A stretch of DNA of 64,000 nucleotides, from NCBI GenBank assembly GCA_963810935.1, contig CAWEPK010000008.1, positions 64,001-128,000 of the forward strand. Direction: 5' to 3'. The stretch comes from an uncultured delta proteobacterium. Lineage in GTDB: Bacteria > Desulfobacterota > Syntrophorhabdia > Syntrophorhabdales > WCHB1-27. The translations under genes and the position numbers were made by a program. Below are positions 5,747 through 38,304 of this stretch, piece after piece; the first letter of the stretch is position 1; each line of letters starts with the position of its first letter. The notes below the pieces were generated by a model, which saw nothing but the letters and a program-made list of their open reading frames with translations, searched no databases and was not told the DNA's origin.

Positions 5747-6361
5747 ATGTCAACGGTAGCTTCCTCGACGAACACCGCCAACACAACGAATACCGCAACG
5801 AGTTCCAGCAACGCCACTCTCAGCCAGAACGATTTCCTGCAGATCCTGATGACCCAGCTCCAGAACCAGGACCCCTTGGATCCCACGGACACGAACAGCT
5901 TCGTACAGGAGATGTGCCAGCTCACATCGACACAGGCGATCACGCAGATGCAGACGGACTTCAGCAACCTCGTGAGCAGCCTCCAGAACAGCAGTATGGG
6001 GCAGTGGGCTTCCACGATAGGGGACTACATGCAGGTAAGCAGCACATCGATCTCCGAGGGCGACAAGGTCACGCTGAGCCCGACCGGGAGCTATGACAGC
6101 CTCAGCCTTACGCTGAAGGATTCGTCAGGCAACGAGACGACCAAGACGTTCAGCTCCACCGATACGCCGACATATAGCGACACGGACGGAAACTATACGA
6201 TCGTGAGCGCCAGCCAGACGACTAAGGGCGTATCCACTACATGCAATTACAACGTCTACCGGGTCATATCGGCGATCCAGGGCGGCACGTCGGGCACGTC
6301 CCTCGTCGCAAGCGACGGCACGGCCTACGCTACGAGCAGCATAAATCAGATAGTCCAATAG
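5747..6361 (+). CDS. flgD: Flagellar hook capping protein FlgD
   Basis: DFLQILMTQLQNQDPLDP motif; SD AAGGAGG. Confidence 0.93.
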   Translation: MSTVASSTNTANTTNTATSSSNATLSQNDFLQILMTQLQNQDPLDPTDTNSFVQEMCQLTSTQAITQMQTDFSNLVSSLQNSSMGQWASTIGDYMQVSSTSISEGDKVTLSPTGSYDSLSLTLKDSSGNETTKTFSSTDTPTYSDTDGNYTIVSASQTTKGVSTTCNYNVYRVISAIQGGTSGTSLVASDGTAYATSSINQIVQ

Positions 6362-6378
6362 GAGGAGAGGAGGATACC

Positions 6379-8250
6379 ATGCTCAGTTCACTCTATTCAG
6401 GCATAAGCGGACTTCTGGCGAATTCGGACGCGCTGGATGTCATAAGTAATAACATATCCAACGTGAACACGGTCGGCTACAAGTCACAGGGCGCCCAGTT
6501 CGAGGACCTGCTCTACCAGACCATCGTGGGCGCAAACGGCACCTCCCAGGTAGGCAGGGGCGCCGCTCTGGAGTCGGTAAATACGGACTTCTCGCAGGGG
6601 TCCTTCGAGACGACAAACTCCAGCACCGACCTCGCCATCGGCGGGCAGGGGTTCTTCATCGTGAATAAGCCCGACAGTGATACTCCGTACTATACGAGGG
6701 CGGGCAGCTTCACGCTCGACAAGAACGGCGACTTGGTCGACGACGCGGGCGATTACGTCCAGGGAAAGAGCATCGACCAGTCGACAGGCACGGCCTATGG
6801 CGTAGACGGCAACATCGTCATATCGCAGCAGCCGAGCGAGCCGAAGCCCTCGTCGACGATCGATATGGTCGTCAATCTCGACGCAGGCTCCGCGTGGGCG
6901 GGCAGCGCGAGTATTACGAGCGGGTCTCTTGTCACCAACATCGCGGCAGCGAGCGGACATTATCCTACGTCGGGCAATTACAGCGTTTCCGTCACTGGCG
7001 CCGCGACCGACGGCTCTTATCCCATCGCGCTCACCCTACCCGACGGCTCTACGGTCTATGGCTCCGCGACGGCCGACCAGAGCGTAAGCGATTTCGTCGG
7101 CAATACGAAGGCGGACGGGAGCGGCACTTCGGTCGATACAGGGCTCAGCCTGACTTTCGGCACGCTGTCGTACAGTCCGTCGTTCGCCGAAAGCGGCGTC
7201 GTCACTGAGGCGGCTGCTGCGACGGGCGACTCGCCCGGGGCGGGCACATATACGATCACCGTTACGGGCGCAGCGGTAAACGGCAGCTACCCTATCTCGA
7301 TCCAGATGCCGGACGGGACGACGCTTACCGGGACGGCCGCTAACGGGACCGTGAGCGACCTGGTCGCGACGGGCGGGACCGATACGGGGCTCAGCCTCAC
7401 GCTTTCCGGGTTGAGCTGGAATGCCGGTACGAGTACGGGCAGCACCGGTACGGTCACAGTCAGCGGGAGCGGCGCCACTGCTTTGGCCATCGGTGGCTTC
7501 GACGCCACTTCGGCGAGCTCAATGTCGGCCACGTCTAATTATTCATCTTCGATAACGGTCTATGATTCCCTCGGAACAGCTCACGTCGTCACAGCCTATT
7601 TCAGGAAAGACGACTCGAACTCCTCGGGCGCCACGTGGGACTGGTACGTGGAACCGCAGAGCGGCGATTCCATCACGTCGGGCGGTTCTGGGACCCTCAC
7701 GTTCAACAGCAGCGGCACTTTGATAGCCGGCGGGGCGGCCCAGCCTACGACCTTCAACTTTGCCGGCGCGCAGACGGGACAGGTGGTGAACCTCGTGTTA
7801 GGTTCGGCCTCAGGCGAAGGCTCGACAACGCAGTACTCGTCGACTACCTCCTCTAACACGGTCTATCAGAGCCAGGACGGCTACGCGCCGGGCGTGCTCC
7901 AGAGCATCTCCGTAAGCCAGGACGGCGTCATATCGGGAAGCTACGACAACGGCCAGAGCCTGAAGCTATACCAGCTAACCCTTGCTGACTTCAGCGACCC
8001 GCAGGGCCTTTCTTCGGACGGCGGCAACCTCTACTCTGCGACGCTAAGCTCCGGAGACGCCTACACCTCGGTGCCCGGAGCGGACGGCATGGGGAAGATC
8101 AGCGCGAACTCCCTTGAGGAATCGAATGTGGACCTCGCGACCCAGTTCTCACAGATGATTATCGCGCAGAGCGGCTACGAGGCCAACTCGAAAGTCATAA
8201 CGACGACCGACGAGTTACTCCAGACCCTGATGAACATGAAGACCACGTAA
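6379..8250 (+). CDS. flgE: Flagellar hook protein FlgE with inserted duplicated domain
   Basis: ISNNISNVNTVGYK, TDLAIGGQGFF, YTRAGSF, YDSLG, LEESNVDL; SD GGAGG. Confidence 0.96.
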   Translation: MLSSLYSGISGLLANSDALDVISNNISNVNTVGYKSQGAQFEDLLYQTIVGANGTSQVGRGAALESVNTDFSQGSFETTNSSTDLAIGGQGFFIVNKPDSDTPYYTRAGSFTLDKNGDLVDDAGDYVQGKSIDQSTGTAYGVDGNIVISQQPSEPKPSSTIDMVVNLDAGSAWAGSASITSGSLVTNIAAASGHYPTSGNYSVSVTGAATDGSYPIALTLPDGSTVYGSATADQSVSDFVGNTKADGSGTSVDTGLSLTFGTLSYSPSFAESGVVTEAAAATGDSPGAGTYTITVTGAAVNGSYPISIQMPDGTTLTGTAANGTVSDLVATGGTDTGLSLTLSGLSWNAGTSTGSTGTVTVSGSGATALAIGGFDATSASSMSATSNYSSSITVYDSLGTAHVVTAYFRKDDSNSSGATWDWYVEPQSGDSITSGGSGTLTFNSSGTLIAGGAAQPTTFNFAGAQTGQVVNLVLGSASGEGSTTQYSSTTSSNTVYQSQDGYAPGVLQSISVSQDGVISGSYDNGQSLKLYQLTLADFSDPQGLSSDGGNLYSATLSSGDAYTSVPGADGMGKISANSLEESNVDLATQFSQMIIAQSGYEANSKVITTTDELLQTLMNMKTT

Positions 8251-8260
8251 CAACCACGGT

Positions 8261-8304
8261 AAGGGGGGCGGGTGGGCATAGGCCCGTCCGCCCCCCTTTA
8301 TTTT
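8261..8304 (+). terminator. Intrinsic terminator after flgE
   Basis: AAGGGGGGCGGGTGGGC-ATAG-GCCCGTCCGCCCCCCTT stem followed by TATTTT. Confidence 0.8.
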
Positions 8305-8360
8305 GCCTGCACGCGTCACGCATGTCCCCCAAGTATCTTCCTATCCCGCAAGTCACGCAT

Positions 8361-8374
8361 GTCAAGAAAGTGAC
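8361..8374. promoter_or_regulatory. FleQ-like enhancer box upstream of fliL
   Basis: GTCAAGAAAGTGAC resembles the FleQ site GTCaNTAAAtTGAC; about 110 bp upstream of a sigma54 promoter. Confidence 0.4.
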
Positions 8375-8485
8375 GGAAGTCGCTCCCAACACCAACACCT
8401 GAAAGGCCTCGGAAGCACGGACCGCGCCGCGTCTCATCGTCCATATCCCCTTTAATAGAGCGGGTTTACAACGATCTAAGCGCAC

Positions 8486-8501
8486 TGGCATACATATTGC
8501 T
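8486..8501 (+). promoter_or_regulatory. sigma54 promoter for the fliL operon
   Basis: TGGCATACATATTGCT, GG-N10-GC. Confidence 0.8.
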
Positions 8502-8527
8502 GTTTCGTGTCCCAAGGAGGATGGTAA

Positions 8528-9031
8528 ATGGCTGAAGCAGAGACACAGGAAAAGGCAGCGCCCGAAGCAACCGAAAAGCCCGCGAAAGGGAAGAAAGGGC
8601 TCATCAAGATGCTCATAATCGTGCTCGCAGCGCTGGGGATCGCAGGCGCCTGTGGGTACTACTTCTACGGAAAGAACGCGCTGGCGCATGCCTCGAAAGA
8701 GAAGGCCGAGAAGAAGAATGAAAAGGTCGAGGTAGGTCCCATCGTCTCATTGGAGCCTTTCATCATCAATGTCTCCGGCGATTCCTCCAAATACGTCAAG
8801 ATCTCGGTTGCCCTCGAGCTGAAAAACGAAAAGGGAGTGGAGCACGCAAAGAAGATCACGCCTGTCATCCGCGACGTCATGCTGGGCGTGCTGGGCAGCA
8901 AGACACCTGAGACATTCATCGACGTGACCGGGCGGAACGCGATAAAAAAGGAACTCTTCACGACTGCCGACCGGCTCTTTGCGGACAACGGTCTAAAAGC
9001 GGTCTACATAACCGACATCGTCATGCAGTAG
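8528..9031 (+). CDS. fliL: Flagellar basal body-associated protein FliL
   Basis: Single N-terminal TM helix, LEPFIINV, PVIRD, C-terminal VYITDIVMQ. Confidence 0.92.
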   Translation: MAEAETQEKAAPEATEKPAKGKKGLIKMLIIVLAALGIAGACGYYFYGKNALAHASKEKAEKKNEKVEVGPIVSLEPFIINVSGDSSKYVKISVALELKNEKGVEHAKKITPVIRDVMLGVLGSKTPETFIDVTGRNAIKKELFTTADRLFADNGLKAVYITDIVMQ

Positions 9032-9042
9032 GAGCGATTAAC

Positions 9043-10053
9043 GTGGAGCAATTACTTTCCCAGGAAGAAATCGACGCCCTTCTCAAGGGGATCTCCGAAG
9101 GAGACGTGGAGACGGGGACTGAGGAAATGGAGGCGGAGGCAGAGGGACAGGCCGCAACGGAAGCGGTGCGCGTGCCGGCCACCGCGCAACTCCTCGATTT
9201 CGCAAAGTACACGAAGGTCAGGAAGGAGAAGCTGATTTCTCTGGACTTCATAAACGACCGGGTGTCGAAGTCCCTGCGGTCCGCTCTCACGCTGTTCCTC
9301 GAGAGAGAAGTCGAGATAAACGTCGGCCCGTCGCAGTACCTCGAATACGGCGAGTTCATCAAGACGCTCCCGCTGCCCACGAATATGAACATCGTCACGA
9401 CGGACAACCTCAAGGGCTTCTTCATCGTCATCTTCGACACGAAGCTGATCTTCTGCGTCCTCGAGACGGTATTCGGCGGAAGCAGCGTAACGGCGCCGAA
9501 AATAGAGGGCAGGGAGTTCACCAAGATTGAGTTTAACGTCATAAAGAAGCTGGTCGATATCGTCTGCACGGAAATGGAGCGCGCCTGGGAGCCGGTCTAC
9601 GAGATAAGATGCAGTTATTCGAGGTCGGAGATAAACCCCAATTACGTCACAATGGTCTCGATGGAAGAGACGATTGTTATGACGGAGTTCTCCATAGAGA
9701 TAGCCGACATAGCCGGTTGGATGAAGGTCTGCATACCTTACGGGATACTCGATACGATAAAGGACCACCTTCTGACGACGCCCTCGCGCGAAGACCTGGA
9801 GATGAGGCAGAAGTGGATGCAGAAACTGCGCGACCGCGTGAAGGAGGTGCCCCTCAACCTGAGGGCCGTTCTCGGCAAGAAGAAGCTCACCGTCGAGGAG
9901 TTCCTGAAGATCAAAAAAGACAGCCTGATCGTGACCGATACGCCCGTGGACGAGCCCATCGACGTTCGCATCGGAAACAAGACGAAGCTCAGAGGCAGCA
10001 TGGGCATCCATAAGGGCAGCAAGGCAGTCAGGATCGAGCAGATAGTTTATTGA
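9043..10053 (+). CDS. fliM: Flagellar motor switch protein FliM
   Basis: LSQEEIDALL CheY-binding peptide, REFTKIE, C-terminal SpoA domain. Confidence 0.95.
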   Translation: MEQLLSQEEIDALLKGISEGDVETGTEEMEAEAEGQAATEAVRVPATAQLLDFAKYTKVRKEKLISLDFINDRVSKSLRSALTLFLEREVEINVGPSQYLEYGEFIKTLPLPTNMNIVTTDNLKGFFIVIFDTKLIFCVLETVFGGSSVTAPKIEGREFTKIEFNVIKKLVDIVCTEMERAWEPVYEIRCSYSRSEINPNYVTMVSMEETIVMTEFSIEIADIAGWMKVCIPYGILDTIKDHLLTTPSREDLEMRQKWMQKLRDRVKEVPLNLRAVLGKKKLTVEEFLKIKKDSLIVTDTPVDEPIDVRIGNKTKLRGSMGIHKGSKAVRIEQIVY

Positions 10054-10065
10054 GAGGTGGAAGTG

Positions 10066-11434: not shown

Positions 11435-11443
11435 GGGGATGGA

Positions 11444-11713: not shown

Positions 11714-11715
11714 GC

Positions 11716-12480: not shown

Positions 12481-12498
12481 GGAGATAAGAGGCTTAAC

Positions 12499-15620: not shown

Positions 15621-15660
15621 GCGACGGAAGCGACATAAGGGCATTGAGGAGCGATAAACG

Positions 15661-20017: not shown

Positions 20018-20071
20018 ATGTCGGTCTCGATGGCACCGGAGGCGAGGTACATACCTGCGCAGCGAGGACGG

Positions 20072-21104
20072 ATGATAGATGTACTAGTGGTCGATGATTC
20101 GAGGGTGATGACGCGGATCGTATCGAAGATCCTCGAAAAGGACCCGAACATCCGCGTGGTAGGGGTCGCCGCGAACGGTCTTGATGCCATAGAGAAGATC
20201 GAACAGCTCAAGCCCGCCGTTGTCACGATGGACGTCGCCATGCCCGTTATGAACGGGATAGACGCCCTCAAGCATATCATGGCAAACAACCCCGTTCCGA
20301 TCATCATGCTCAGACTCGCTCTCGCGCGATCATGCAGATATAACCATGGAGGCCCTTAACCTCGGGGCCTGCGATTTCGTTACAAAGGACTTCTCCAACT
20401 GGTCGCTGGCCGACAAGGAGAGGGAGCTTATCAGCAAAGTTAAGAACGTTTCCAGGAGCGGGATCAAGCTGCGCCTTCTCGCTTCCGCCCAGGGACGTCC
20501 GGTCCCGGAACCTGAGCCCGCACCCAGGCGCGTGCGCACCGGGCGGGAAATCCTCTCCATCGGCGCGTCCACCGGCGGACCGCCCGTCCTCCAGTATATA
20601 CTCTCCCACCTGCCGGATGATTTTCCCGTCCCTATCGTTATCGCCCAACATATGCCCCGGACGTTCACGCAGTATTTTGCTGAGAGGCTGGACAGGACGT
20701 CCCGCATCCGCGTCAAGGAGGCCGAGGACGGAGAGGTCCTGGAGCCCGGAGTCGCCCTGGTTTCGCCGGGAGACACGCATATCACGCTGAAAAGGAAGGG
20801 AGAGCGAACGACCGTGCACCTGGTCGTGGACGGCTCTTATATTTACCGCCCCTCCGTGGACCTTCTTATGCGCTCGACGGCCGAGGCCTATGAATCGAGC
20901 TGCGCCGGACTGATCCTCACCGGAATGGGCACCGACGGCCTGGCCGGCATGAAGGAGCTGAAATCGAAGGGTGGTTACGTGATTGCCCAGGACGAGGAGA
21001 CGTGCGTGGTCTACGGTATGCCCAAGGCCGTCGTTAACGCCCATCTTGCCGATGCGGTGCTGCCGACGGAGCGCATACCGGAGGAAATAATCAGGATATT
21101 ATGA
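20072..21104 (+). CDS. cheB: Chemotaxis methylesterase CheB, split by an extra A at about 20314
   Basis: REC domain plus GASTGGP/QHMP/LTGMGTDG; removing A20314 restores IIMLSSLSRDHADITMEAL. Confidence 0.93.
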
Positions 21105-26801: not shown

Positions 26802-26812
26802 TAAGCGATGGT

Positions 26813-27544
26813 ATGTTGACCGGCATCTTCACCACACTAAGCGGAAAGACAGCGAGCGAAAAGAAGCTCGACATCATCGCCAATAATGTGGCAAACGCCC
26901 TTACTCCAGGCTACAAGAGCATAGAGGCGGCCTTCGCGACTACCACCCTTGATGATGGCACGGAGCCCGACCAGGTGCCGGTGAACTATGTCAATATTCC
27001 CACTTCCTATACACAGTTTTCTGACGGGCCCCTCATCAATAGTGGGAACCCTCTCGATCTGGGCCTGGAGGGGAACGGCTTTTTCGCGGTGACGACGCAG
27101 GGTGGGACGATGTACACGAGGAACGGCCAGTTCCAGCTCGACGCCACGGGAAGGCTCGTCACGCACGACGGGAACTCAGTTCAGAGCCAGGGCGGCGGCG
27201 ATATCACCGTCCCGGGGGGCGGCAAGGACGTCAGGATCGGAGGCGACGGCTCAGTCTACGTCGATAAGCTTTTCGTGGACAGGCTGAAGATAGCTGACTT
27301 CCAGAACAAGCAGGACCTGAAAAGCACAGGGGGAAGTCTCTTCGTGAATGCGAACCCCAGTAACCAGGAGACCCCGGCGGAGCATTACGTCCTGCACCAG
27401 GGCGCTTACGAGTCGTCGAATGTCGATGTAATGAAGTCGATGGTGCAGATCATTACCGTGTTGAGGGCCTACGAATCGTATGCAAAGGTGGACCAGTCGT
27501 CGAGCGACATGCTTGGAAAGCTGATCGATCTGGGAAAATTCTAG
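26813..27544 (+). CDS. flgF: Flagellar basal-body rod protein FlgF
   Basis: IIANNVANALTPGYK, GNPLDLGLEGNGFF, YTRNGQF, ESSNVD. Confidence 0.9.
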   Translation: MLTGIFTTLSGKTASEKKLDIIANNVANALTPGYKSIEAAFATTTLDDGTEPDQVPVNYVNIPTSYTQFSDGPLINSGNPLDLGLEGNGFFAVTTQGGTMYTRNGQFQLDATGRLVTHDGNSVQSQGGGDITVPGGGKDVRIGGDGSVYVDKLFVDRLKIADFQNKQDLKSTGGSLFVNANPSNQETPAEHYVLHQGAYESSNVDVMKSMVQIITVLRAYESYAKVDQSSSDMLGKLIDLGKF

Positions 27545-27552
27545 GAGGAGTT

Positions 27553-28344
27553 ATGCTAAGGGCTTTGTGGACCGCCAGCACAGGCATGAATGTGCAGCAG
27601 ACGAACCTCGACGTGATCGCGAACAATATCGCGAACGTCAATACGACCGCATTCAAGGCAAGCAGGGCCACGTTCCAGGACCTGATGTACCAGACGATGC
27701 GTCTCATGGGCACGAAGACCGAGCAGGGCAACCAGGTTCCGACCGGCATCCAAATAGGGCACGGTGCGAAGCTGGCCGCCGTCCAGAAGCAATTCACCCA
27801 GGGGGATTACCAGCAGACGGGGAACCAGCTCGACCTCGCTATCGAGGGGAGCGGCTTCCTGCAGATCCAGTTGCCATCGGGCGAGCTTGCCTATACCAAG
27901 GCCGGCTCGTTCCAGCAGGACGCCGAGGGCAGGATATGCACGTCTGACGGATATCTCCTCGACCCGAGCATCACTGTTCCCCAGACGGCCACGGCCGTCA
28001 CCATAGCGAATGACGGCACCGTCTCCGTGCAGTCGCAGAATCAGACGGCGCTCCAGCAGATTGGCACTCTCAACCTCTGGACCTTCCCGAACGTCGCCGG
28101 ATTGAACGCAATAGGCAAGAACCTCTACCAACCGACGGACGCCAGCGGGGCCGCCCTGTCGGGGACGCCCGGCCAGAACGGATTCGGTACGGTCCTTCAG
28201 GGGTACCTTGAGCTGTCTAACGTCAACGTCATGCAGGAGATGATCAACCTCATTATAGGACAGAGGGCATATGAAGCCAACTCAAAGGCAATCCAGGCGG
28301 CCGACCAGATGCTACAGATCTCGAATAATGTCAGGCAGTCGTAA
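27553..28344 (+). CDS. flgG: Flagellar distal rod protein FlgG
   Basis: VIANNIANVNT, FQDLMYQ, PTGIQIGHG, QRAYEANSK. Confidence 0.97.
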   Translation: MLRALWTASTGMNVQQTNLDVIANNIANVNTTAFKASRATFQDLMYQTMRLMGTKTEQGNQVPTGIQIGHGAKLAAVQKQFTQGDYQQTGNQLDLAIEGSGFLQIQLPSGELAYTKAGSFQQDAEGRICTSDGYLLDPSITVPQTATAVTIANDGTVSVQSQNQTALQQIGTLNLWTFPNVAGLNAIGKNLYQPTDASGAALSGTPGQNGFGTVLQGYLELSNVNVMQEMINLIIGQRAYEANSKAIQAADQMLQISNNVRQS

Positions 28345-29018
28345 GGGGGTCTTTCTTCCGGCCCTTCTTCTCGTCGCGGGCCTTCTTTTCGCACAGGGGC
28401 TCCAGGCGGGGACCGTAGAGTCGGAAGTGACCGCTTTCGTTAAGCAGATATACCGGGACAACGAGGTCAAGGTCACGTTTTCCGGCCTGCCTCCGCAGGC
28501 CCAGGGGGACGTGCCCGTTAAAAACATCGGTTTCAGCAAGGTGCCCGACATGGGCGGCGACGGCATTTGCATGGTGGCCATAGAGAGCAGGAACGGCAAG
28601 GACGCGAGTGTATACGTGCCGTTTCGGGTGCTCGTCAAGCGATCGCTCTATATCACCAAGCGCAACATAGGTAAGGGGGACGTCATCCACCTTGCAGATT
28701 TGTCGATAAGGGAGAGCTACCTGAACGGAGCGACTGCCAACTATCCGGTCGGGGTAGACGACGTAGTGGGCAAGGGAGCAAAGAAAGAGATAGCGGCCGG
28801 CGCCGTCCTTACGACGCAGGTCCTGGAGTCCGCCGTGGCGGTGCAAAAGGGAGAGGCGGTCAACGTAACGGCGGAGAACAAGAGGCTGACCGTCCAGGGG
28901 AAGGGCACTGCCCTGGAAAAAGGTAAGCTGGGCGACCTTATTAAGATAAAAAGCCAGGGCGGCAAAGAGGCTCGTCGGCAAAGTAACTGGAAATAATTCC
29001 GTGGCGGTGGAGTTTTGA
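28328..29018 (+). CDS. flgA: P-ring chaperone FlgA; extra G at about 28970 shifts the last codons
   Basis: Signal peptide, SAF domain; removing one G gives GKELVGKVTGNNSVAVEF*, whose TGA overlaps the flgH TTG. Confidence 0.88.
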
Positions 29019-29722
29019 AGAGAGAAGCGATATCGTCCGTAACAGCCGTCTGCCTGCTTTTCCTCGGAGGCTGCATCTCCATAGAGCCCTCGAAGATAGC
29101 TAACGAGCCCCAGACCATCTCGAAGACTTTCAAGGCAACGCCCCCGAAACCCGTCTTTCCGGACGCGAACAACGGGGCCGTGGCGCAGGGAAGGATGAGC
29201 GGACTTTTCGCCGACCAGAAGGCGCGCAACGTGGGTGACGTCCTGACGGTCAATATCGTCGAGGTCTCCCAGGCATCCGAGAGCGCCACTACGGCGACGA
29301 CGAGGAAATCGCAGACCGTCGCCCAGGTCAGCGGCCTCTTCGGCATGGAGAACCATGCCACCGGCCCGTGGAAAAACCTGGGCAACATCATCAACACGAA
29401 CACGCCCAACAATGATTTCACGGGGACGGGGCAGACGACGCGCCAGGGCTCGTTGTCGGCAACCATAACGGCCAGGGTGATGGACGTGATGCCCAACGGC
29501 AACCTCGCCATCGAGGGCAAGCGTGAGATATACGTGAACAACGAGAAGAAGGAGATACTCCTCCAGGGCGTAGTGAGACCGAAGGACATCGCCTTCAACA
29601 ATACGATATCATCCACCCAGGTAGCCGACGCGAAGGTCATTTATACGGGCATAGGTGTGCTCGCAGAGAAACAGAGACCGGGCTGGGGCGCGAGGCTGTT
29701 CGATTTCGTATGGCCCTTCTGA
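29015..29722 (+). CDS. flgH: L-ring lipoprotein FlgH
   Basis: Lipobox LGGC, DQKARNVGDVLTV, NGNLAIEG, C-terminal WPF. Confidence 0.95.
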   Translation: MKREAISSVTAVCLLFLGGCISIEPSKIANEPQTISKTFKATPPKPVFPDANNGAVAQGRMSGLFADQKARNVGDVLTVNIVEVSQASESATTATTRKSQTVAQVSGLFGMENHATGPWKNLGNIINTNTPNNDFTGTGQTTRQGSLSATITARVMDVMPNGNLAIEGKREIYVNNEKKEILLQGVVRPKDIAFNNTISSTQVADAKVIYTGIGVLAEKQRPGWGARLFDFVWPF

Positions 29723-29731
29723 CGGGAAGGC

Positions 29732-30903
29732 ATGCATTGGAGGCGCAGCGTGGGTAAGTCAGAAAACGGGAAAATCGGTCGGGCAGGACGGTCGCACGGG
29801 CTTCGTGCGCTCTTCGCCGCCGCCCTCTGCGGCCTCGCCCTCGTCGCGGCCTCACCGCGCGATTGCCTCTCTGCGAGGATCAAGGACATCGCGTACATCA
29901 ACGGCGTGAGGCCCAACATGCTTATCGGCTACGGCCTCGTGGTGGGGCTAAAACGCACAGGCGATAAGGTGCAGACGATCTTCACCACACAATCCCTCGC
30001 CAACATGTTGGAAAAAATGGGGATAACGGTCGACCCTACGGCCACCAAGGTCAATAACGTGGCCGCGGTCATGGTAACGGCCGAGCTGCCCGCTTTCGCG
30101 AAAGCGGGCAACAAGATCGATGCGACGGTCTCTTCCGCCGGGGACGCGATGAGCCTGGAGGGCGGGGTGCTGCTTATGACCCAGCTCAAAGGGACGGACG
30201 GCCAGGTCTACGCAATCGCCCAGGGAGCAATCACAGTCGGAGGCTTTGCGGCAGCCGGAGCCGCCGCCTCGGTTTCTAAGAACCACCCGACCGTCGGCAG
30301 AATCACGAACGGCGCTATAGTCGAGCGGGAGATCGAGTATCCGGCCATGAAAGGCGAGACGCTGACGATCAGCCTCAAGAAGGCCGATTTCACGAACGCT
30401 CGCAAGCTAGCCGAGCGCATCAACGGCCGTTTCTCCGGCTGCGCGGTGTCAAAGGATGGCGGTACGGTCGTCCTTTCCGTGCCCGAGGAGTGCGGGAAGA
30501 CCCGGTCTCCTTCCTGTCCATCGTGGAAAACCTCGACATCAAGCTCGAGTACCAGGCAAAGATCGTCGTGGACGAAAAAACAGGCACCGTCGTGATCGGT
30601 GAAGACGTGAAGATCGCGTCGGTGGCCATATCGCACGGCAATATAAGCGTCCAGATCAAGGAGACGAAGAACGTGAGCCAACCCCTTCCTTTCTCGAGGG
30701 GCGGACAGACGGTAGTCACGCCCGAGACCGAGCTGCGGGTGGAAGAGGACAAGGGGCATTGGTATTACATGGAGGAAGGGACGAGCATAAGGGAGCTCGT
30801 CAACGCCCTTAACGCAATAGGGGTTTCGACGAGAGACGTCATAATCATCCTCCAGACCATAAAAGCGGCCGGCGCGCTTACCGCCGAGCTGGAAGTCATT
30901 TGA
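29732..30903 (+). CDS. flgI: P-ring protein FlgI, split by a missing base at about 30490
   Basis: RIKDIA, LIGYGLVVGL, AAVMVTA; second ORF AKIVVDEKTGTVVIG...IKAAGAL. Confidence 0.95.
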
Positions 30904-30904
30904 G

Positions 30905-31228: not shown

Positions 31229-31245
31229 GCAGGAGGTATTTATCT

Positions 31246-31554
31246 ATGAAGATTGATAACAATAAACAAGTAGTCCTGCTTAACAACCTTACAAAGCCTT
31301 CCTCCACCAACGGCGGAAAAGGCGCAGGCAGCGACGGCTCGCAGACCGTCACCGACTCCGGGGACAAAGTCGAGCTCTCCGGCTGGAAGGGCGGGGTGGC
31401 GAACCTGACCGCGCAGGCGGCGGCGCTCCCCGACGTTGACGAGGAAAAGGTCGCAAGGGTTAAGCAGGCAATCGAATCAGGGACTTACAACGCGAGCGGC
31501 AAGTTGGTTGCACGCGCCATGATCAAGAGCAACCTGCTGGACGAGACACTGTGA
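31246..31554 (+). CDS. flgM: Anti-sigma28 factor FlgM
   Basis: MKID, DKVELS, KVARVKQAIESGTY. Confidence 0.92.
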   Translation: MKIDNNKQVVLLNNLTKPSSTNGGKGAGSDGSQTVTDSGDKVELSGWKGGVANLTAQAAALPDVDEEKVARVKQAIESGTYNASGKLVARAMIKSNLLDETL

Positions 31555-31555
31555 T

Positions 31556-31975
31556 ATGGAACGTGAAGGGCTGACAGGTCTGGAACAACAGGAGCTTTCC
31601 GCTCTGGGTGATTTCCTCAAGGCGCTCACCGCAGAGAGGGACGCCATAATCTCCTTTTCCCTGGAAGGCATAGTGCGCGAGAACAACAGGAAAGAAGAGA
31701 TACTGAAGCGGCTCGAGTACATCGAGACCGAGAAGGAAAAGCTCCTTGCCTCACCCGACAACGGCCACGGCCCCCAAGAAGCGCCGGGGCCGCTCGCCGA
31801 CAAAATCCAGGGCAAGGTCAGAGAGGTCCGGACGGCGCTCGACAAGAACATGCGCCTCCTCTCGTTTTCCATGGACCACGTCAAATCATCTCTGGAAAAG
31901 GTCGTCGAATTCATTAACAGGACTTCCTACCAGAAGGGCAGGACCATATCCGTGATGGTGTCGAGGCAGGTATAG
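31556..31975 (+). CDS. flgN: Flagellar chaperone FlgN
   Basis: Helical ERDAII...KEEIL...NMRLL; lies between flgM and flgK. Confidence 0.75.
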   Translation: MEREGLTGLEQQELSALGDFLKALTAERDAIISFSLEGIVRENNRKEEILKRLEYIETEKEKLLASPDNGHGPQEAPGPLADKIQGKVREVRTALDKNMRLLSFSMDHVKSSLEKVVEFINRTSYQKGRTISVMVSRQV

Positions 31976-33939
31976 TGTCGATAGCATCAATACTCAATAT
32001 CGCGAACAGCGGACTAAACGCGAGCCAGACGGCCATACAGACCGTCTCGCACAACGTTTCCAACGTCGATACGCCGGGTTACTCCAGGCAGCAGGTGGAG
32101 TTGACCGAGGCCGATCCTACCGCCTCATCCGTGGGCCTCATGGGCAACGGCGTCAGCGTGCAGGGGATCAAGAGCTATTTGGACCAGAACCTGCAGGACG
32201 CGATCACGAGTAAGAACAGCGACGTCCAGGAGCAGCAGGTCTCCGAGCAGTACCTGACGCAGATCCAGAGCGTCTTCGATGAAAGCAATTCCAATCTGTC
32301 CACCAATTTAACGAACTTCTTCAACTCCTGGAGCACCCTGTCCACGGACCCGACCAACACGTCCGATAAACAGGCCGTGGCGTCCAGTGGACAAATGCTT
32401 TGCTCGACCTTCAACACGATGTCTTCCGACCTTTCCGGCTTGCAGACGAACCTGAACGGCGAGGTGAGCAGCCAGATTGACGAGATAAACGGGATTACGT
32501 CGCAAATAGCCTCTCTCAACTCGCTGATAAGTCAGTCTTCCACTGGAACATCCACGGCAAACGACTACGTAGACCAGAGGAACCAGCTCCTCCAGCAGTT
32601 GTCCGGCTACATGAACATCAGCTATTACTCGGACAGCTCGACTAATATGGTAGGCGTCCTTACATCGAAAGGAACGACCCTCGTCGACGGCACGGCCTCC
32701 TACAACCTGACACCGGGGCAGGAGGCATCCGGGATGACCTCCGTTGTGTGGCAAGGGCCCTCCGACGATTCAATAGATATAACGGACCAGATATCGGGCG
32801 GTTCATTGGGCGCCGCGCTGACTGCGCGCGACTCCACCATCCCCGGATACCTGTCGAATCTGAACTCTTTAGCCCAGTCTATCGCGCAGAACGTCAATTA
32901 CTTCCACGAGCAGGGCAACGACAGTGCGGGCGTACCTTTTTTTCAGTGCAGCGATACTTCAAACTACGCGAGCGGCATTAGCCTGTCCAGCCAGATCGTG
33001 GACGCCTCGGGCACGGCCCAGACACAGAATATTATGGCAAGCTCTTCCACGACGGACACGACGGACAATGACGTTGCAGCCAGGATCGCCTCTCTTGAAA
33101 GCGAGCCCCTCATGGGAGGAAGCGCGATCGACTCCGGCGTATTCGCTTCAGCCTCGACTAGTGTCGGCCTGACGTCGGACGCTACCCTTGCCGTCAACGG
33201 AGTGGGCGTCACTTTGCACGCCGGGGACTCGCTCAACGACATCGCTGCCGCAGTTAACTCCGCAGCCTCCAGTACGGGCGTAACGGCGCAGGTCGTCCAG
33301 GCATCGTCCGGCTACAAGCTCGTGCTGAGCGCCACCGTTGCCGTCCCGTCGTCATGGACACAAAACTCTCCGAGCCAGGCGCTATCGACCGATAACCCGG
33401 ATCAGCTTGAGCTTCCGGGCGGGGTAGATATCACGTTCCAGGCGGGCCAGTCGCTTAACGACGAGGCAAACGCGATAAACCGCTACCAGAGTACGACGGG
33501 CCTGACTGCCTCCGTTTTTCAGAACAATTCCGGCACATATCAGTTGCTGCTCAGCCCTACCGGAAACGGTAGCGCGCCTCCTGCCCTGAGCAGCGTATCT
33601 GTCGTGAACGGCAGTCTCACGGTGCCGTCGACCTCGGCGGCGTCTTCAGTAACCGGGACGCTGGGCCTGTCCGGTTTCACCTGGGTCGCTTACGAGGCGG
33701 GCGTGGTTTCCGGAGTAGGCCAGGCGACGACTAACGCTACAGACCTCGCCACGTACAACCAGAGCGCCCTGACATCGCTCCAGCAGCAGCAATCTCAGGA
33801 ATCGGGCGTATCGATAGACGAGGAAATGACGAACATGATTCTGTACCAGAATGCTTACCAGGCTTCCGCGCGTCTCTATACGCTCGCGCAGACGATGCTT
33901 AATTCGCTATTGCAGTCCGTGGGGGTGACCACGTCATGA
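31975..33939 (+). CDS. flgK: Hook-associated protein 1 FlgK
   Basis: SHNVSNVDTPGYSRQ, SGVSIDEEMTNMILYQNAYQASAR. Confidence 0.95.
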   Translation: MSIASILNIANSGLNASQTAIQTVSHNVSNVDTPGYSRQQVELTEADPTASSVGLMGNGVSVQGIKSYLDQNLQDAITSKNSDVQEQQVSEQYLTQIQSVFDESNSNLSTNLTNFFNSWSTLSTDPTNTSDKQAVASSGQMLCSTFNTMSSDLSGLQTNLNGEVSSQIDEINGITSQIASLNSLISQSSTGTSTANDYVDQRNQLLQQLSGYMNISYYSDSSTNMVGVLTSKGTTLVDGTASYNLTPGQEASGMTSVVWQGPSDDSIDITDQISGGSLGAALTARDSTIPGYLSNLNSLAQSIAQNVNYFHEQGNDSAGVPFFQCSDTSNYASGISLSSQIVDASGTAQTQNIMASSSTTDTTDNDVAARIASLESEPLMGGSAIDSGVFASASTSVGLTSDATLAVNGVGVTLHAGDSLNDIAAAVNSAASSTGVTAQVVQASSGYKLVLSATVAVPSSWTQNSPSQALSTDNPDQLELPGGVDITFQAGQSLNDEANAINRYQSTTGLTASVFQNNSGTYQLLLSPTGNGSAPPALSSVSVVNGSLTVPSTSAASSVTGTLGLSGFTWVAYEAGVVSGVGQATTNATDLATYNQSALTSLQQQQSQESGVSIDEEMTNMILYQNAYQASARLYTLAQTMLNSLLQSVGVTTS

Positions 33940-34826
33940 GAGTAGGTGATAGCTTCCAGTTCCAGACTTATGCGAGCACGCTGATGAACCTGAAGTCGCA
34001 GATGGACCAGGCGACCCAGGAGATATCGTCGGGCGAAAAGGTCATCGCTCCTTCCGACGACCCGTCGGCTTACGCCCAGAACCTCGAAGTACTGGCCGAG
34101 CAAAGCCAGAACACCCAGTATAAGAGCAACCTGACGAGCCTCCAGACCTTGAGCGGCTATTACCAGAACTCTCTCAACACGGTAAGCAACGTACTGACGA
34201 GCGCGGAGCAACTGGCAGAGCAGATGGCCTCCGACACGCAAGACGCGACCACCAGGACGTCAGCCGCCAGCGAGGTTGGCAGCATGATCGACGAGCTCGT
34301 GACCGTGGGTAACACGAAGGTCGGGGACACGTATATATTCGGCGGAGAAGACGCAGGGACCGCGCCTTACCAATCGGATGGCACGTTCGTCGGTTCCAGC
34401 CAGGTGGGCCAGGTGGCGGTCGATTCATCCTCCACGATGGCCGCCGGCATATCGGGGAACACCATCTTCAACGGCACCGTCGACGGCCAGAGCGTAAACA
34501 TCTTCACCACCTTGAGCCAGTTCCAAACCGACCTGACGAACAATAATACCACAGGCATACAGACAGACCTCAATAATATCGGCAATTGCGTGAGTTTGAC
34601 GACGGGTAACCTGTCCTATGTGGGTTCTTATGCAAACAGCATAAGCAGCCTCCTGACGACAAACTCGAATACGGACACGGCGCTCTCCACAACGTCCTCG
34701 AATCTGGTCGGTGTAGACATGGCGCAGGCCGTCTCTGACTATACGACGCTCTCGACGGCCTACCAGGCTGCGATTTACACGATGTCCAAGGCCTCGAGCC
34801 TTACCATACTCAACTACCTGCCCTAG
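33936..34826 (+). CDS. flgL: Hook-associated protein 3 FlgL
   Basis: SSGEKVIAPSDDP, YIFGG, C-terminal TILNYL. Confidence 0.93.
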   Translation: MRVGDSFQFQTYASTLMNLKSQMDQATQEISSGEKVIAPSDDPSAYAQNLEVLAEQSQNTQYKSNLTSLQTLSGYYQNSLNTVSNVLTSAEQLAEQMASDTQDATTRTSAASEVGSMIDELVTVGNTKVGDTYIFGGEDAGTAPYQSDGTFVGSSQVGQVAVDSSSTMAAGISGNTIFNGTVDGQSVNIFTTLSQFQTDLTNNNTTGIQTDLNNIGNCVSLTTGNLSYVGSYANSISSLLTTNSNTDTALSTTSSNLVGVDMAQAVSDYTTLSTAYQAAIYTMSKASSLTILNYLP

Positions 34827-34845
34827 TTCATAGGGAAGGGAACGA

Positions 34846-35070
34846 ATGCTCGTACTATCCAGAAAAAAACACCAGTCGATCCTTATAAGGGGAAAGGGGG
34901 GCGACATACGTGTAGTCGCGCTGGAGGCCGACAAAGGCAGGCTGCGGCTCGGTATAGAGGCGCCTCAGGGCTATACCATTATAAGAGAGGAGCTCCTGGG
35001 AGAGATAAAAGAGGCCAACAAGCAATCGGCGCTCGGCAGTATGGATGAAATAAGGAAGGTAATAGAATGA
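34846..35070 (+). CDS. csrA: Carbon storage regulator CsrA
   Basis: MLVLSRK...RLGIEAP...IIREE. Confidence 0.93.
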   Translation: MLVLSRKKHQSILIRGKGGDIRVVALEADKGRLRLGIEAPQGYTIIREELLGEIKEANKQSALGSMDEIRKVIE

Positions 35071-35459
35071 CGGCTACAGGCGGGATCCACCTCAAAGGGA
35101 AGGTAATCGGGTTCGAAGAGTTGGAGGACTACGCCCTTCAGGACCCCTTCGGCGCAGATTCGCCCTTCCGGCTTCTCAAGTCCCTTCAGTCGGAGATAGC
35201 TTTTGTTGTGGTCAACCCTTACCATGTAGTCGAAGAATACACGTTCGATATCGAAGACGACACGCTGGCCGCCCTCAGTCTGACGGACAAGGACGTCGAC
35301 CGGGTCGCGGTCCTCTGCATCGCAAGGCGCGAAAACGAGACGGTTTACGCCAACCTGCGCTCCCCACTGCTCATCAACACGGAGAAAGGCCGCTTCCTGC
35401 AAGTGGTCCTGCCTAACGAAGGATATCCCATCTCGGCCCCGCTAGTAAAAAAAGCTTAA
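35067..35459 (+). CDS. fliW: Flagellar assembly factor FliW
   Basis: IGFEE, AFVVVNP, ANLRSPLLIN. Confidence 0.92.
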   Translation: MTATGGIHLKGKVIGFEELEDYALQDPFGADSPFRLLKSLQSEIAFVVVNPYHVVEEYTFDIEDDTLAALSLTDKDVDRVAVLCIARRENETVYANLRSPLLINTEKGRFLQVVLPNEGYPISAPLVKKA

Positions 35460-35483
35460 CCGGTTTTTTTTCCGATTCCCCCC

Positions 35484-35510
35484 TTAAGTATCTTCACTAC
35501 CTGTCGATAA
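35484..35510 (+). promoter_or_regulatory. sigma28 promoter of fliC
   Basis: TTAA-N15-GTCGATAA. Confidence 0.7.
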
Positions 35511-35516
35511 CATTGT

Positions 35517-35593
35517 CATGGAAGGAAAGGAGGTGAGAAAATCAGATCCTTCCGACCAAGGCACGACGCCGAATAAAAACTAAAACATGGAGG
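35517..35593 (+). promoter_or_regulatory. fliC leader with multiple ANGGA CsrA-type sites
   Basis: CATGGAAGGAAAGGAGG inside a GTC..GGAAGGA/TCCTTCCGAC hairpin; ACATGGAGG at the SD. Confidence 0.5.
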
Positions 35594-35600
35594 TTTCAAA

Positions 35601-36701
35601 ATGTCTTTAACACTCAACACGAACGTTTCTTCATTGATTACGCAAAACTGGCTGTCAGTCAATACGGCAGGAGAGTCAAAGGCAACGGAGCAGCTTTCGA
35701 GCGGCTCTAAGCTCAATAGCGCCGGCGACGACCCGGCGGGATACGCCATTGCTTTCTCTCTCGGCGTAAGCGACGCGGCCCTGCAGACGGCCACCAACAA
35801 CGCCAACCAGGGCTCGGCAATGCTCCAGGTGGCGCAGGGGGCCATGCAGCAGATCGGCAACATCCTTACTCAGTTGCAGCAGCTCGCCACCGAGGCGTCT
35901 TCCGCGAACAACGGATCCAACCTTACCTCCCTGGACAGCGAGAGACAAGCCTTGGAAACTGAGATCAACAACATCAACCAGAGTACGACTTACGGCGGGA
36001 GCGCCGTCTTCGGCTCCGGCAACGTGGCATCGGGCACGGCTACGGCAGCCACCGGCTACGTGAGCAGCGACGTCTCGGGTTGGAGCGGAACCGCTGCAGC
36101 GAACTACACCGTAACGGCGACCGCGACTGCAGTGACTCTGACCAATGCGGCCACGGGCGACTCACAGAAGATCGACTTCACAACGCCCACCGGCTCGAAC
36201 ACGACGACGCTGAATTTCAGCTCCCTCGGGATCAAGCTGACGGTCGGCGCTAACGTTGCCAACATGACGGGCTTGACCTTCACCGTAACCCCCGGCGCCG
36301 CCAACATGAAGTTTCAGGTGGGCGATGTGGCCAACACGGCTAACCAGGTTTCGCTGACGCTGAACCAGGTCGGCACTGCGGCCCTCGGTATAACGGGTGA
36401 CCTCACAAGCCAGACCGATGCGGGTACTTACATGGGAACGATCACAAGCGCACTCAGCACGCTGAGCAGCGCAGAGAGCAGCGTCGGCAACGCCCAAAAC
36501 CAGCTGAGCTACGCGACTGCCAACCTGCAGACGATGGATACGAACACCCAGTCCGCCGAATCGACCATCAAAGACACCGACTACGCATCGTCCATGTCGT
36601 CCTTCACGAAGTACCAGATCGCAACCCAGGCGGGCGTGGCTATGCTCTCGCAGGCCAACCAGATCCCGCAGGAGATTCTCTCCCTGATAAAAGGCCAGTA
36701 A
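35601..36701 (+). CDS. fliC: Flagellin
   Basis: NTNVSSL, LSSG-KLNSAGDDPAG, FQVG, IKDTDYA, MLSQANQIPQ. Confidence 0.96.
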   Translation: MSLTLNTNVSSLITQNWLSVNTAGESKATEQLSSGSKLNSAGDDPAGYAIAFSLGVSDAALQTATNNANQGSAMLQVAQGAMQQIGNILTQLQQLATEASSANNGSNLTSLDSERQALETEINNINQSTTYGGSAVFGSGNVASGTATAATGYVSSDVSGWSGTAAANYTVTATATAVTLTNAATGDSQKIDFTTPTGSNTTTLNFSSLGIKLTVGANVANMTGLTFTVTPGAANMKFQVGDVANTANQVSLTLNQVGTAALGITGDLTSQTDAGTYMGTITSALSTLSSAESSVGNAQNQLSYATANLQTMDTNTQSAESTIKDTDYASSMSSFTKYQIATQAGVAMLSQANQIPQEILSLIKGQ

Positions 36702-36718
36702 TCGGGGAAACCGTGCTT

Positions 36719-36748
36719 GCCCCCTCCCTTCGAGGGAGGGGGCTCTTT
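36719..36748 (+). terminator. Intrinsic terminator after fliC
   Basis: GCCCCCTCCC-TTCGA-GGGAGGGGGC followed by TCTTT. Confidence 0.8.
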
Positions 36749-36792
36749 AAACTGAAAGAAGAGGCGTGAAGAAAGAGCAATTTCAATGTATG

Positions 36793-36808
36793 CGGCTCGG
36801 AATTTGCA
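36793..36808 (+). promoter_or_regulatory. Possible sigma54 promoter for fliD-fliS
   Basis: CGGCTCGGAATTTGCA, GG-N10-GC. Confidence 0.45.
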
Positions 36809-36837
36809 CTAGTAAGGTCCGAAGGAGGGCATAAAAG

Positions 36838-38304
36838 ATGTCAACGACCTCATCGACTACGTCTACTACGTCCCCGTCGGTAAACCTTACGGGCATAGTG
36901 AGCAATACCGACTGGCAGACCCTCGTATCGGAGATAACGGCGGACCAGAAAACGGCTGCGGAACAACCGCTTAACGACGACCTGACTACGGAGCAGAACC
37001 TTCTGTCTGCATGGCAGTCTTTCAACACGACCCTCTCCGCGCTCACGAATTACATCAACACCAACAATCTTAATACAGACACCGGCTACCAGGCGTTCAC
37101 CGGCTCGCTGTCGTGCAGCGACGCGAGCGTCACGCCGTCGAACGTGCTGAGCGCCTCGACGGGCACGGGTACGTTGGCGGCGGGAACGTATTCCATAGTA
37201 GTCTCTCAGCTTGCGCAGGAGGAAAAGATAGCCTCTGGCCAGTATTCATCAAGCAGCACGGCCCTCGGCATTTCGGGCAACCTGTTGATCAACGGCACGA
37301 CCGTTTCTATCGCATCGACCGATACACTCTCCGATATCGTCAATAACATCAACAGCTCGGGCGCCGGGGTTAACGCCTCGCTCCTGACGGCCTCGGGCGA
37401 GACGTACATGACGATCCAGGCGTCCGGCGCCGGGTCGTCCAGCATAACGATAGCGGACGGGACCGGCTCGACTGTGGCGGAATCGCTAGGTCTGCTTTCC
37501 AACGGCCAGATTGCGAACCCGATACAGGACGGGAAGGAAGCGGAGCTGACCATAGACGGGTATGCGGTGACCTCTGCCTCGAACACCGTGACCGGGGCAA
37601 TCCCCGGCGTCACCCTTAACCTGACGGGAACAAACGCTTCGAGCAGCCCGATAACGCTCTCCATCACGCAGGACACGTCGGCCGTCACCACGGACGCCAA
37701 CACGCTCGTCTCGGACATAAACAGTGTCCTGACATACATAAACGGCCAGAACACCGCCAGTTCGTCGACTTCTTCTTCGTCCTCGACGTCGAACGTGCTC
37801 ATGGCGAACCCGACGCTGGCTGCCGTAAAGAACTCGATAAACACGACGCTGCTGGGAAACATCAGCGGCAACTCGACCTATACCACGCCCGCCTCCATCG
37901 GCATCACGTTCGGCACGGACGGGAGCACGGATGGCACTATCAGCCTCGACTCCACTACGTTCTCGGCCGCCCTGTCCGCCAACCCGACAGAGGTGATCAA
38001 CGCGATAAAGTCGATCAGCGCCTCTCTTTACACTAACCTGAATGGGTACGTGGATCCTACCACAGGGTCACTGACGTCCCTGCAAACGTCCATTAGCGAC
38101 AAGATCACATCGATAAATGACCAGCTCACCCAGGTGGACCAGCGATGCGCCCAGCAGGCTACTGCCCTACAGACAGAGTATAACAACCTGGAGGTCGTCA
38201 TCGAGAATTCCAACAACACCAAGACATTTCTCACTGACATGGTTAACTCAATGACCAACACGAGCAATAGCAGCTCATCGTCCACTCTTTATAGAGGCAT
38301 ATGA
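36838..38304 (+). CDS. fliD: Flagellar cap protein FliD
   Basis: TGIVSNTDW, VSQLAQ, TLSDIVNNIN, SNTVTGAIPGVTLNL. Confidence 0.93.
   Translation: MSTTSSTTSTTSPSVNLTGIVSNTDWQTLVSEITADQKTAAEQPLNDDLTTEQNLLSAWQSFNTTLSALTNYINTNNLNTDTGYQAFTGSLSCSDASVTPSNVLSASTGTGTLAAGTYSIVVSQLAQEEKIASGQYSSSSTALGISGNLLINGTTVSIASTDTLSDIVNNINSSGAGVNASLLTASGETYMTIQASGAGSSSITIADGTGSTVAESLGLLSNGQIANPIQDGKEAELTIDGYAVTSASNTVTGAIPGVTLNLTGTNASSSPITLSITQDTSAVTTDANTLVSDINSVLTYINGQNTASSSTSSSSSTSNVLMANPTLAAVKNSINTTLLGNISGNSTYTTPASIGITFGTDGSTDGTISLDSTTFSAALSANPTEVINAIKSISASLYTNLNGYVDPTTGSLTSLQTSISDKITSINDQLTQVDQRCAQQATALQTEYNNLEVVIENSNNTKTFLTDMVNSMTNTSNSSSSSTLYRGI

Follow-up and report, generated by a model that had tools for sequence, protein, structure and literature searches.

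Loss of charged residues from the outer flagellar proteins in a clade of uncultured Syntrophorhabdales and its possible link to acidic habitats

Background

Charged contacts of the flagellin core are regarded as conserved elements in the assembly and switching of the filament. A flagellar gene cluster of an uncultured delta proteobacterium raises the question of why a flagellum should lose most of them. The cluster, ordinary in other respects and seemingly complete, lies in a stretch of 64,000 nucleotides (the window; assembly GCA_963810935.1, contig CAWEPK010000008.1, positions 64,001 to 128,000 of the forward strand). The host belongs to Syntrophorhabdales. A reading of the window from its sequence alone (the sequence-only reading) had claimed that the hook, junction, filament and cap proteins are purged of arginine and lysine, including at conserved sites. 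It ascribed this to selection on the parts outside the outer membrane, with an acid-stable filament and protease resistance among the options.

Results

Charge of the hook and filament proteins

Lysine and arginine together (K+R) make up 1.7-2.5% of the six outer proteins FlgD, FlgE, FlgK, FlgL, FliC and FliD translated from the window, and the individual counts given by the sequence-only reading are exact (Table 1). Its estimates for the rod proteins (FlgF about 7%, FlgG about 5%) and for K/R-rich motor proteins hold as well: the values are 7.4%, 4.9% and, for motor, export-ATPase and chemotaxis proteins, mostly 12-19%. Pfam upheld all eight axial identities, that is, the six outer proteins together with FlgF and FlgG. 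Among the 2338 soluble proteins of at least 150 amino acids in the genome (our own gene calls; median K+R 12.2%, 1st percentile 2.5%), the six fall within the lowest 1% or so. Binomial P ranges from 1.9e-6 to 8.8e-22 against the genome mean and from 1.1e-3 to 1.2e-15 against the means of orthologs in sister families.

The comparison set consisted of 60 relatives. The low-charge clade comprises nine genomes from genera g1, g2, g5 and g6, counting that of the window; the sister set for FliC consists of ten orthologs from families f3 and f4. K+R of FliC is 1.3-3.3% in the nine clade genomes and 6.2-9.4% in the sisters. The corresponding ranges are 1.7-3.4% and 6.5-11.9% for FlgK, 2.4-5.6% and 8.1-14.2% for FlgL, 1.3-4.6% and 5.9-13.5% for FliD, and 0.9-3.4% and 4.9-12.6% for FlgD. 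The weakest contrast among the six is that of FlgE, with a slight overlap (2.2-3.4% and 3.3-7.8%). K+R is thus about three-fold below the sister orthologs in five of the six proteins and 1.7-fold in FlgE. Arg is nearly gone, with clade means of 0.4-1.1%. FlgH, FlgI, FliS, FlgN, FliW and FliL are hardly shifted between the clade and the sisters. In the part of the ortholog comparison proposed by the sequence-only reading that concerns composition, sister orthologs clearly differ.

The same reading left it open whether the values lie in the normal range of the family. They do not: the first 140 residues of 84 flagellin-family sequences of the same phylum contain 6.4-16.7% K+R (median 10.7), against 2.1% in the window FliC, and the 62 full-length sequences among them contain 4.4-10.6%. 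This sample, 90 loci from 178 matching of 301 genomes, leans towards canonical flagellins, as 70 loci were chosen among the better Pfam scores.

Several sequences were set aside. The FlgE of G012 (8.8%, deemed a frameshifted translation) and the misassigned FlgN of G033 were left out of both composition and site counts; the non-orthologous FliC of G050 and G055 and the whole of genus g3 were left out of site counts; the frameshifted FliC of G002 and fragments were left out of the ortholog composition of the relatives.

The window fliC is the sole flagellin gene located in the genome, where the search matched only fliC and flgL. According to Pfam matches of the neighbours, it sits in a flagellar cluster with flgK, flgL, fliW, fliD and fliS. 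Low charge as an artefact of assembly is ruled out by the short-read contigs and by the same composition in eight related genomes. The contigs cover most of flgD/flgE and flgK-fliD with identity of at least 99% and without frameshifts, except for one base in fliD. This base, additional in one short-read contig at 38284, is near the 3' end of the gene, and the last residues of FliD, among them one of its two arginines, may be an assembly artefact.

Another genus of the family, g3, has a different flagellin of about 600 residues with canonical motifs and 4.6-5.4% K+R, found in G010, G013, G016 and G018 (loci L024-L026 and L030), in some genomes as tandem copies; it forms a separate branch of the tree. 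The charge of FlgK (4.0-6.5% K+R) and FlgL in this genus is intermediate only. It is likely that the flagellin was replaced in g3, which provides a natural control for the loss of charge. A further flagellin, of spirochaete type and very near to solved 282-residue flagellins, was found on a 2-kb contig of a sister-family genome (G050:C51, locus L029) and is likely to be contamination of the bin.

Charged sites lost

A site was considered conserved if at least 70% of sisters carry K/R in the column; conserved D/E and hydrophobic sites were counted likewise. Of the conserved sites in the six outer proteins, the window retains 32 of 116 for K/R, 72 of 148 for D/E (49%) and 503 of 584 for hydrophobic residues (86%). 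Over the clade, the retention in these proteins is 19-50%, 37-57% and 80-92%, respectively. In seven inner proteins (FlgF, FlgH, FlgA, FlgN, FliS, FliW and FliL) 97 of 121 K/R sites are kept in the window and 69-93% over the clade. The lost charged residues are replaced mainly by Q, N, T and S. Five of the six outer flagellar proteins, as well as the TPS adhesin domains described below, have about half the Glu of the sisters; in FlgE Glu is 2.4% against 3.3%. The change is therefore a loss of both charge signs, strongest for Arg. The purge of Arg and Lys claimed for the flagellum is real, but that description is too narrow, as Asp and Glu are lost too, FlgG is partly shifted, and proteins outside the flagellum are affected.

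In FliC, the basic positions 16, 31 and 91 and the acidic positions 79, 94, 314 and 331 are charged in nearly all sisters and neutral in nearly all nine members of the clade. All 73 background flagellins have K or R at position 31, and all nine clade members Q or E. There are 13 columns with K/R in at least 60% of the 73 background flagellins; the window keeps four of them (27, 37, 324 and 337, K27 included), and the sisters on average 10.6.

All motif changes listed by the sequence-only reading are present in the window, but not all of them belong to the clade. All 10 sister FliC orthologs contain QNQ and TIxD, and by alignment QNQL and STIKD predate the clade. FLQ of FlgD is found in one sister genome, and FLK is retained in two genomes of the same genus as the window. 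Judging from the same alignments, the clade-specific changes are ERLSSG to EQLSSG, TRLKE to TQLxQ and, in FlgE, QRG to QSG, QNG or QTG (8 of 10 clade members).

Compared with canonical filaments (Bacillus and Pseudomonas, PMC5643327), the window FliC has intact N- and C-terminal flagellin domains (PF00669, 87.1 bits, and PF00700, 75.2 bits; curated cut-offs 26.6 and 23). It retains the acidic residues D43, D44, E114, E121, D325 and D327. In the Treponema FlaB1 filament, D106, R91, E92, R223, E225 and R244 are named as conserved inter-subunit contacts (PMC13439194). Mapped by motif via the spirochaete-type flagellin, they correspond to N107, Q93, Q94, Q301, S303 and T322 of the window, all neutral; the equivalents of R223, E225 and R244 are mostly neutral already in the sister families. 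A single-sequence AlphaFold model of FliC was discarded (mean pLDDT 46.6). A Maf-type glycosylation gene (PF01973) was not found in the genome, which is 93% complete; the filament may still be glycosylated.

The limit of the trait at the cell surface

Along the flagellar axis K+R falls from 14.7% in FliE through 13.2% in FlgB, 11.9% in FlgC, 7.4% in FlgF and 4.9% in FlgG to the 1.7-2.5% of the outer proteins. FlgB and FliE equal the sisters, and FlgC is slightly lower (11.2% against 12.6%; five genomes each). The flgH-like L-ring protein contains 9.8-10.8% in the clade and 10.2-13.0% in the sisters and keeps 93% of the sister K/R sites. The flgM-like secreted anti-sigma factor contains 11.8-14.9% and 16.8-21.8%, respectively.

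The trait is a property of the cell surface beyond the flagellum, with the limit at about the outer membrane. In BamA, the POTRA domains are unchanged (33.8% charged residues in the clade, 33.1% in the sisters), whereas the barrel drops to 16.1% from 20.8% (13 and 24 sequences). The median K+R of TPS adhesin domains is 3.9% in 15 clade sequences and 6.8% in 13 sister sequences, with overlapping ranges. Mann-Whitney P values for both comparisons are overstated, as kin are not independent. The 232 proteins with signal peptides, selected by a crude predictor, have a median K+R of 12.5%. The proposal of selection on parts outside the outer membrane is supported by the gradient along the axis and by the split between the BamA barrel and POTRA domains.

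The rest of the low-K+R tail of the genome consists, judged from the sequences, largely of long adhesin-like, other signal-bearing or phage-like proteins. Eight TPS-domain matches, several of them in tandem, are all low-charge (G000 C7:181973-195584, C12:343388-350361, C17:57195-60330). Within the window, 60231-62501 on the minus strand encodes a secreted protein of 756 residues with BACON and ASH/Ig-like C-terminal domains and 5.3% K+R, another low-charge surface protein. A run of genes at G000 C7:407000-417100 reads as phage-like structural genes with 0.7-5.5% K+R, which suggests that prophage virion proteins may follow the trend of the surface.

Independent origin in other lineages

Homolog search brought up unrelated flagellins with the same QLSSG change. 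A profile of 16 QLSSG flagellins yielded named Acidobacteria and similar sequences, 108 of them new, with median K+R 2.5%; this set was retrieved with a low-charge query and is hence selected for the trait. The named Acidobacteria flagellins (Granulicella arctica, Edaphobacter, Acidoferrales, Terriglobales) contain 1.8-4.0% and have lost sites 16, 31, 94 and 331, and mostly 124 and 314 too. Two Burkholderiaceae flagellins are also low-charge (2.2-2.9%). A group of four flagellins (P0076, P0088, P0102 and P0200) is more extreme than the window FliC, with 0.7-1.1%.

In the tree, the clade is nested with the high-charge sister flagellins (SH-like approximate likelihood ratio test, SH-aLRT, 99), apart from the other low-charge groups. 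The approximately unbiased (AU) test rejects one origin, with p-AU 0.016 for joining the clade to Acidobacteria and 0.014 for joining all low-charge groups. The trees were quick ones and the columns of the trait were left in, which should favour joining the low-charge groups. Transfer of a single low-charge flagellin from Acidobacteria is rejected on these grounds, and by these phylogenies low-charge flagellin arose at least twice, once of these within the order of the clade.

The details of the substitutions differ. The flagellins of Granulicella arctica and Edaphobacter sp. resemble those of the clade in the low K+R (1.8-2.5%), in Gln for Arg31 and in the loss of Arg16, Glu94 and Glu331. However, they form a separate branch, keep Arg91 and Asp79 and have lost position 93, whereas in the clade 91 and 79 are lost and Lys93 is mostly kept. 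Of 324 records matched in a plasmid search, the 40 listed include no flagellin of an acidophile.

Habitat of the carriers

Close relatives of FliC are present in seven named records, at 64-70% along most of the protein and 80% for one fragment. The records comprise two SPRUCE Syntrophorhabdales, bog_1155 and four bins of Microflora Danica. In six of them FliC has 1.3-3.3% K+R over the aligned part; the seventh is a fragment of 62 residues (6.5%), with FliD at 3.0%. Four records come from bogs (the two from SPRUCE, bog_1155, and a Danish Sphagnum acid bog), two from dystrophic lake sediment and one from urban enclosed freshwater sediment; the Danish labels are those of the Microflora Danica papers (PMC12313526, PMC12823411). 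The pH on record for the SPRUCE bog is 4.1-5.1 (PMC5159855), and three Danish sites and bog_1155 are placed by habitat label.

Window DNA is present in four soil runs from a single study, which may be where it came from; the habitat given for the window itself is soil. Pieces of 151-396 bases that differ from window genes at 0-2 positions come from a peat DNA run and two RNA libraries, and a peat run and a wetland run contain near-identical pieces. The RNA libraries contain near-identical fliC pieces, though such presence is no proof of transcription or assembly.

KdpA, which is tied to low-pH preference (PMC10146879), was found in all 14 other genomes from low-charge genera, in 4 of 6 genomes of g3 and in 16 of 37 sister genomes. 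MnhG, considered as a marker of high pH, proved uninformative, with 0 of 21 for the family and 3 of 37 for the sisters. The genome of the window also contains squalene-hopene cyclase (G000 C9:164502-165365) and two copies of kdpA (C9:224529, C15:31606).

Discussion

Probable adaptation to acidic water

We consider the loss of charge from the hook, junction, filament and cap proteins to be an adaptation to acidic water that reaches the conserved contacts of the filament, with a probability of roughly 0.6. Near pH 4 carboxylates would be protonated and ion pairs would fail, while the leftover Arg and Lys would load each subunit with a large net positive charge, driving the polymer apart. Removal of both partners of a pair, often by Glu to Gln and Asp to Asn replacements, would leave the neutral shapes of the protonated acids; the hydrogen bonds and hydrophobic contacts that remain would be indifferent to pH, and zero charge would be reached at about pH 3.6-3.9. 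Every protein exposed to the medium would be under the same pressure.

A simple charge model with textbook pKa values puts the zero-charge pH of the six window proteins at 3.5-3.9 and the median isoelectric points (pI) at 3.6-3.9 in the clade against 4.3-4.8 in the sisters. At pH 4 the modelled charge per FliC subunit is -1.7 in the window and +8 to +16 in six sister flagellins of the same length. The acid option of the sequence-only reading is strengthened by this model together with the habitat and the convergence, although its form is changed, as both charge signs are lost, not Arg and Lys alone.

Loss of both charge types is the rule in acid-stable enzymes, and is explained by avoided repulsion of positive charges at low pH, with exceptions noted (reviewed in PMC6172347). 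Secreted proteins of acidophiles, such as alpha-amylases and the maltose-binding protein of Alicyclobacillus, have fewer Lys, Arg and His and reduced Asp and Glu, with polar uncharged substitutes (PMC6172347). The window has the corresponding traits: K/R below orthologs, reduced Asp/Glu with polar replacement and low pI. However, the acidophile examples are monomeric enzymes and binding proteins, whereas here conserved contact residues would be removed from a self-assembling polymer whose acid stability is inferred; the extent is also larger, with K+R at about 2%. Across genomes, low extracellular Glu follows a low pH optimum (rho 0.56; Barnum et al., 10.1101/2024.03.22.586313). The window agrees with this signal, which is a genome-wide statistic without gene or site resolution.

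Several points weigh against adaptation to acid. Filaments are depolymerised as a standard by strong acid, 50 mM HCl (PMC6637544), which is far more acid than pH 4-5. The synthesis cost drops too, by 0.8-2.5 ATP per residue. The periplasm is usually assumed to track the outside pH. Protons should reach it, although the signal-peptide proteins, FlgB, FliE and the POTRA domains are unshifted, and a barrier that excludes a large molecule fits the limit at the outer membrane at least equally well. Genus g3 pairs a low-charge BamA barrel with a canonical flagellin, and thus the full purge may not be required. The habitat evidence has limits of its own: the Acidobacteria set is selected, Kdp equally marks low potassium, one named relative comes from the sediment of an urban pond, all named relatives are kin to one another and amount to about one evolutionary event, and the pH values considered cover SPRUCE alone.

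A broader version, in which the filament core was rebuilt several times over and independently in acid-wetland bacteria, each time losing its conserved ion pairs at a shared small set of sites (16, 31, 94, 124, 314 and 331), is tentative, and we put it somewhat below an even chance.

Alternative explanations

The limit at the outer membrane is where another explanation does well, namely that cationic residues were stripped from the surface to avoid sticking to humic acids and Sphagnum polyuronates that would foul the rotating filament, while acidic residues followed as their partners were gone or as they bridged through metal ions. Such polymers are excluded by the outer membrane and protons are not, and both bogs and dystrophic lakes are humic habitats. 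Alginate is strongly bound at acidic pH by the flagellins of Sphingomonas A1 and E. coli, via Arg and Lys in residues 20-40 and in the C-terminal region (PMC9751261), the very region purged in the window FliC. However, by the established architecture the lost sites 16, 31, 314 and 331 belong to D0 or the spoke and would be hidden inside the assembled filament, and acidic residues would repel polyanions, yet half of the conserved ones are lost. Moreover, the mechanism works best at low pH and hence overlaps with acid adaptation. We regard it as unlikely, but worth keeping in view.

An energy- or nitrogen-starved syntroph might make proteins that cannot be recycled from the cheapest residues, an extreme case of extracellular protein economy. 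Extracellular flagellar proteins of E. coli are cheaper, richer in Ala, Asn and Gln as well as Ser and Thr, and poorer in Arg at any copy number (Smith and Chapman 2010, PMC2932507), and the window has the same outward gradient and the same residue bias. Both the mean cost and the side-chain nitrogen are below those of the f4 orthologs in all six outer proteins (19.4-20.3 against 20.5-21.9 ATP per residue by a table of synthesis costs). Economy accounts for the sisters at 6-9% K+R, but not for a further three-fold fall at charged sites that spares hydrophobic ones, which are costly and kept; cheap Asp and Glu are exchanged for dearer, nitrogen-bearing Asn and Gln. The cost of uncharged residues falls about equally in the non-exported FlgN and FliL and the periplasmic FlgA, the exported FlgM retains its 11.8% K+R, and the BamA barrel, which is not shed, loses charge as well. 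Economy as the main cause is thus improbable.

Very low salt, cold or GC-driven drift in place of acidity is a poor candidate. Bogs and soft-water lakes are salt-poor and cold. Cold-adapted proteins carry less surface charge (PMC3787623). However, cold and GC would act in all compartments, whereas the cytoplasmic and POTRA sequences are unshifted; in low salt repulsion would be worsened, as the charge at pH 7 is more negative in the clade (FliC -3.2 against -1.7 per 100 residues). GC or codon bias as such is ruled out, since Arg drops only outside and rises in FlgN and FliL.

Removal of Arg and Lys to evade trypsin-like proteases, flagellotropic phages or predators agrees with the outer-membrane limit and the near-total loss of Arg but is hardly credible, as it predicts neither the loss of buried sites nor the same substitutions in unrelated lineages, phage escape should diversify where the clade has fixed identical replacements, and the protease resistance offered by the sequence-only reading leaves by itself the Asp/Glu loss unexplained.

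Significance

The feature is real, strong, lineage-specific and convergent. The surprise is limited because acid-stable enzymes and whole proteomes are already known to follow the principle. No paper on charge-stripped flagellins of acid habitats was found in a search whose reach did not include most subscription journals. A natural filament without most charged contacts, evolved more than once, opens the necessity of such contacts to direct test. If the link to pH is true, flagellin, a widespread and easily recovered gene, would mark the acidity of the habitats of uncultured lineages at the level of single sites, and the loss of charge would give a design rule for acid-proof protein fibres. 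Repeated rebuilding, if true, would mean a pH-independent hydrogen-bonded filament, the terminal sequence of flagellin would serve as a single-gene pH indicator for uncultured bacteria, and nature would have supplied a test of the need for charged contacts in filament assembly and polymorphic switching.

Features of the locus

Table 1. Flagellar genes of the window and FliC motifs with lost charges
Feature	Positions	Strand	Properties	Basis or comparison
flgD, hook cap	5747..6361	+	204 aa, 1 Arg + 4 Lys, 2.5% K+R	PF03963; sister orthologs 4.9-12.6%
flgE, hook	6379..8250	+	623 aa, 3 Arg + 11 Lys, 2.2% K+R	Pfam FlgE domains
flgF, proximal rod	26813..27544	+	7.4% K+R, mild shift	clade 7.4-9.2%, sisters 9.5-14.2%
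flgG, distal rod	27553..28344	+	4.9% K+R, intermediate shift	clade 4.2-5.7%, sisters 6.9-8.8%; sister K/R sites kept 61%
flgH-like, L-ring protein	29015..29722	+	10.2% K+R, unshifted, serves as control	identity from sequence and gene order
flgM-like, secreted anti-sigma factor	31246..31554	+	11.8% K+R, no purge	identity from sequence and gene order
flgK, hook-filament junction	31975..33939	+	654 aa, 6 Arg + 5 Lys, 1.7% K+R	PF22638
flgL, hook-filament junction	33936..34826	+	296 aa, 2 Arg + 5 Lys, 2.4% K+R	PF00669 and PF00700, weak
fliC, flagellin	35601..36701	+	366 aa, 1 Arg + 8 Lys, 2.5% K+R	PF00669 and PF00700
FliC EQLSSG, residues 30-35	35688..35705	+	Gln31 in place of basic residue	
FliC TQLQQLA, residues 90-96	35868..35888	+	Q91, Q93, Q94 where R, R/K, E conserved	
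fliD, filament cap	36838..38304	+	488 aa, 2 Arg + 7 Lys, 1.8% K+R	PF02465 and PF07195

The flgE gene starts at 6379, and its open frame begins earlier, at 6241. The gene upstream of flgD (4179-5734), fliK by position and without a Pfam match, is split over two frames. The split is an assembly error, as all four short-read runs contain an extra base after 4994; the pieces have about 9% K+R, in part owing to the out-of-frame tail. Four further genes look frameshifted: cheB-like (20018-21104), flgI-like (29732-30903), response-regulator/HD-GYP-like (40083-41565) and motB-like (42899-43613). These are probably assembly indels; FlgI has 287 residues in the window and 383-396 at full length in the relatives.

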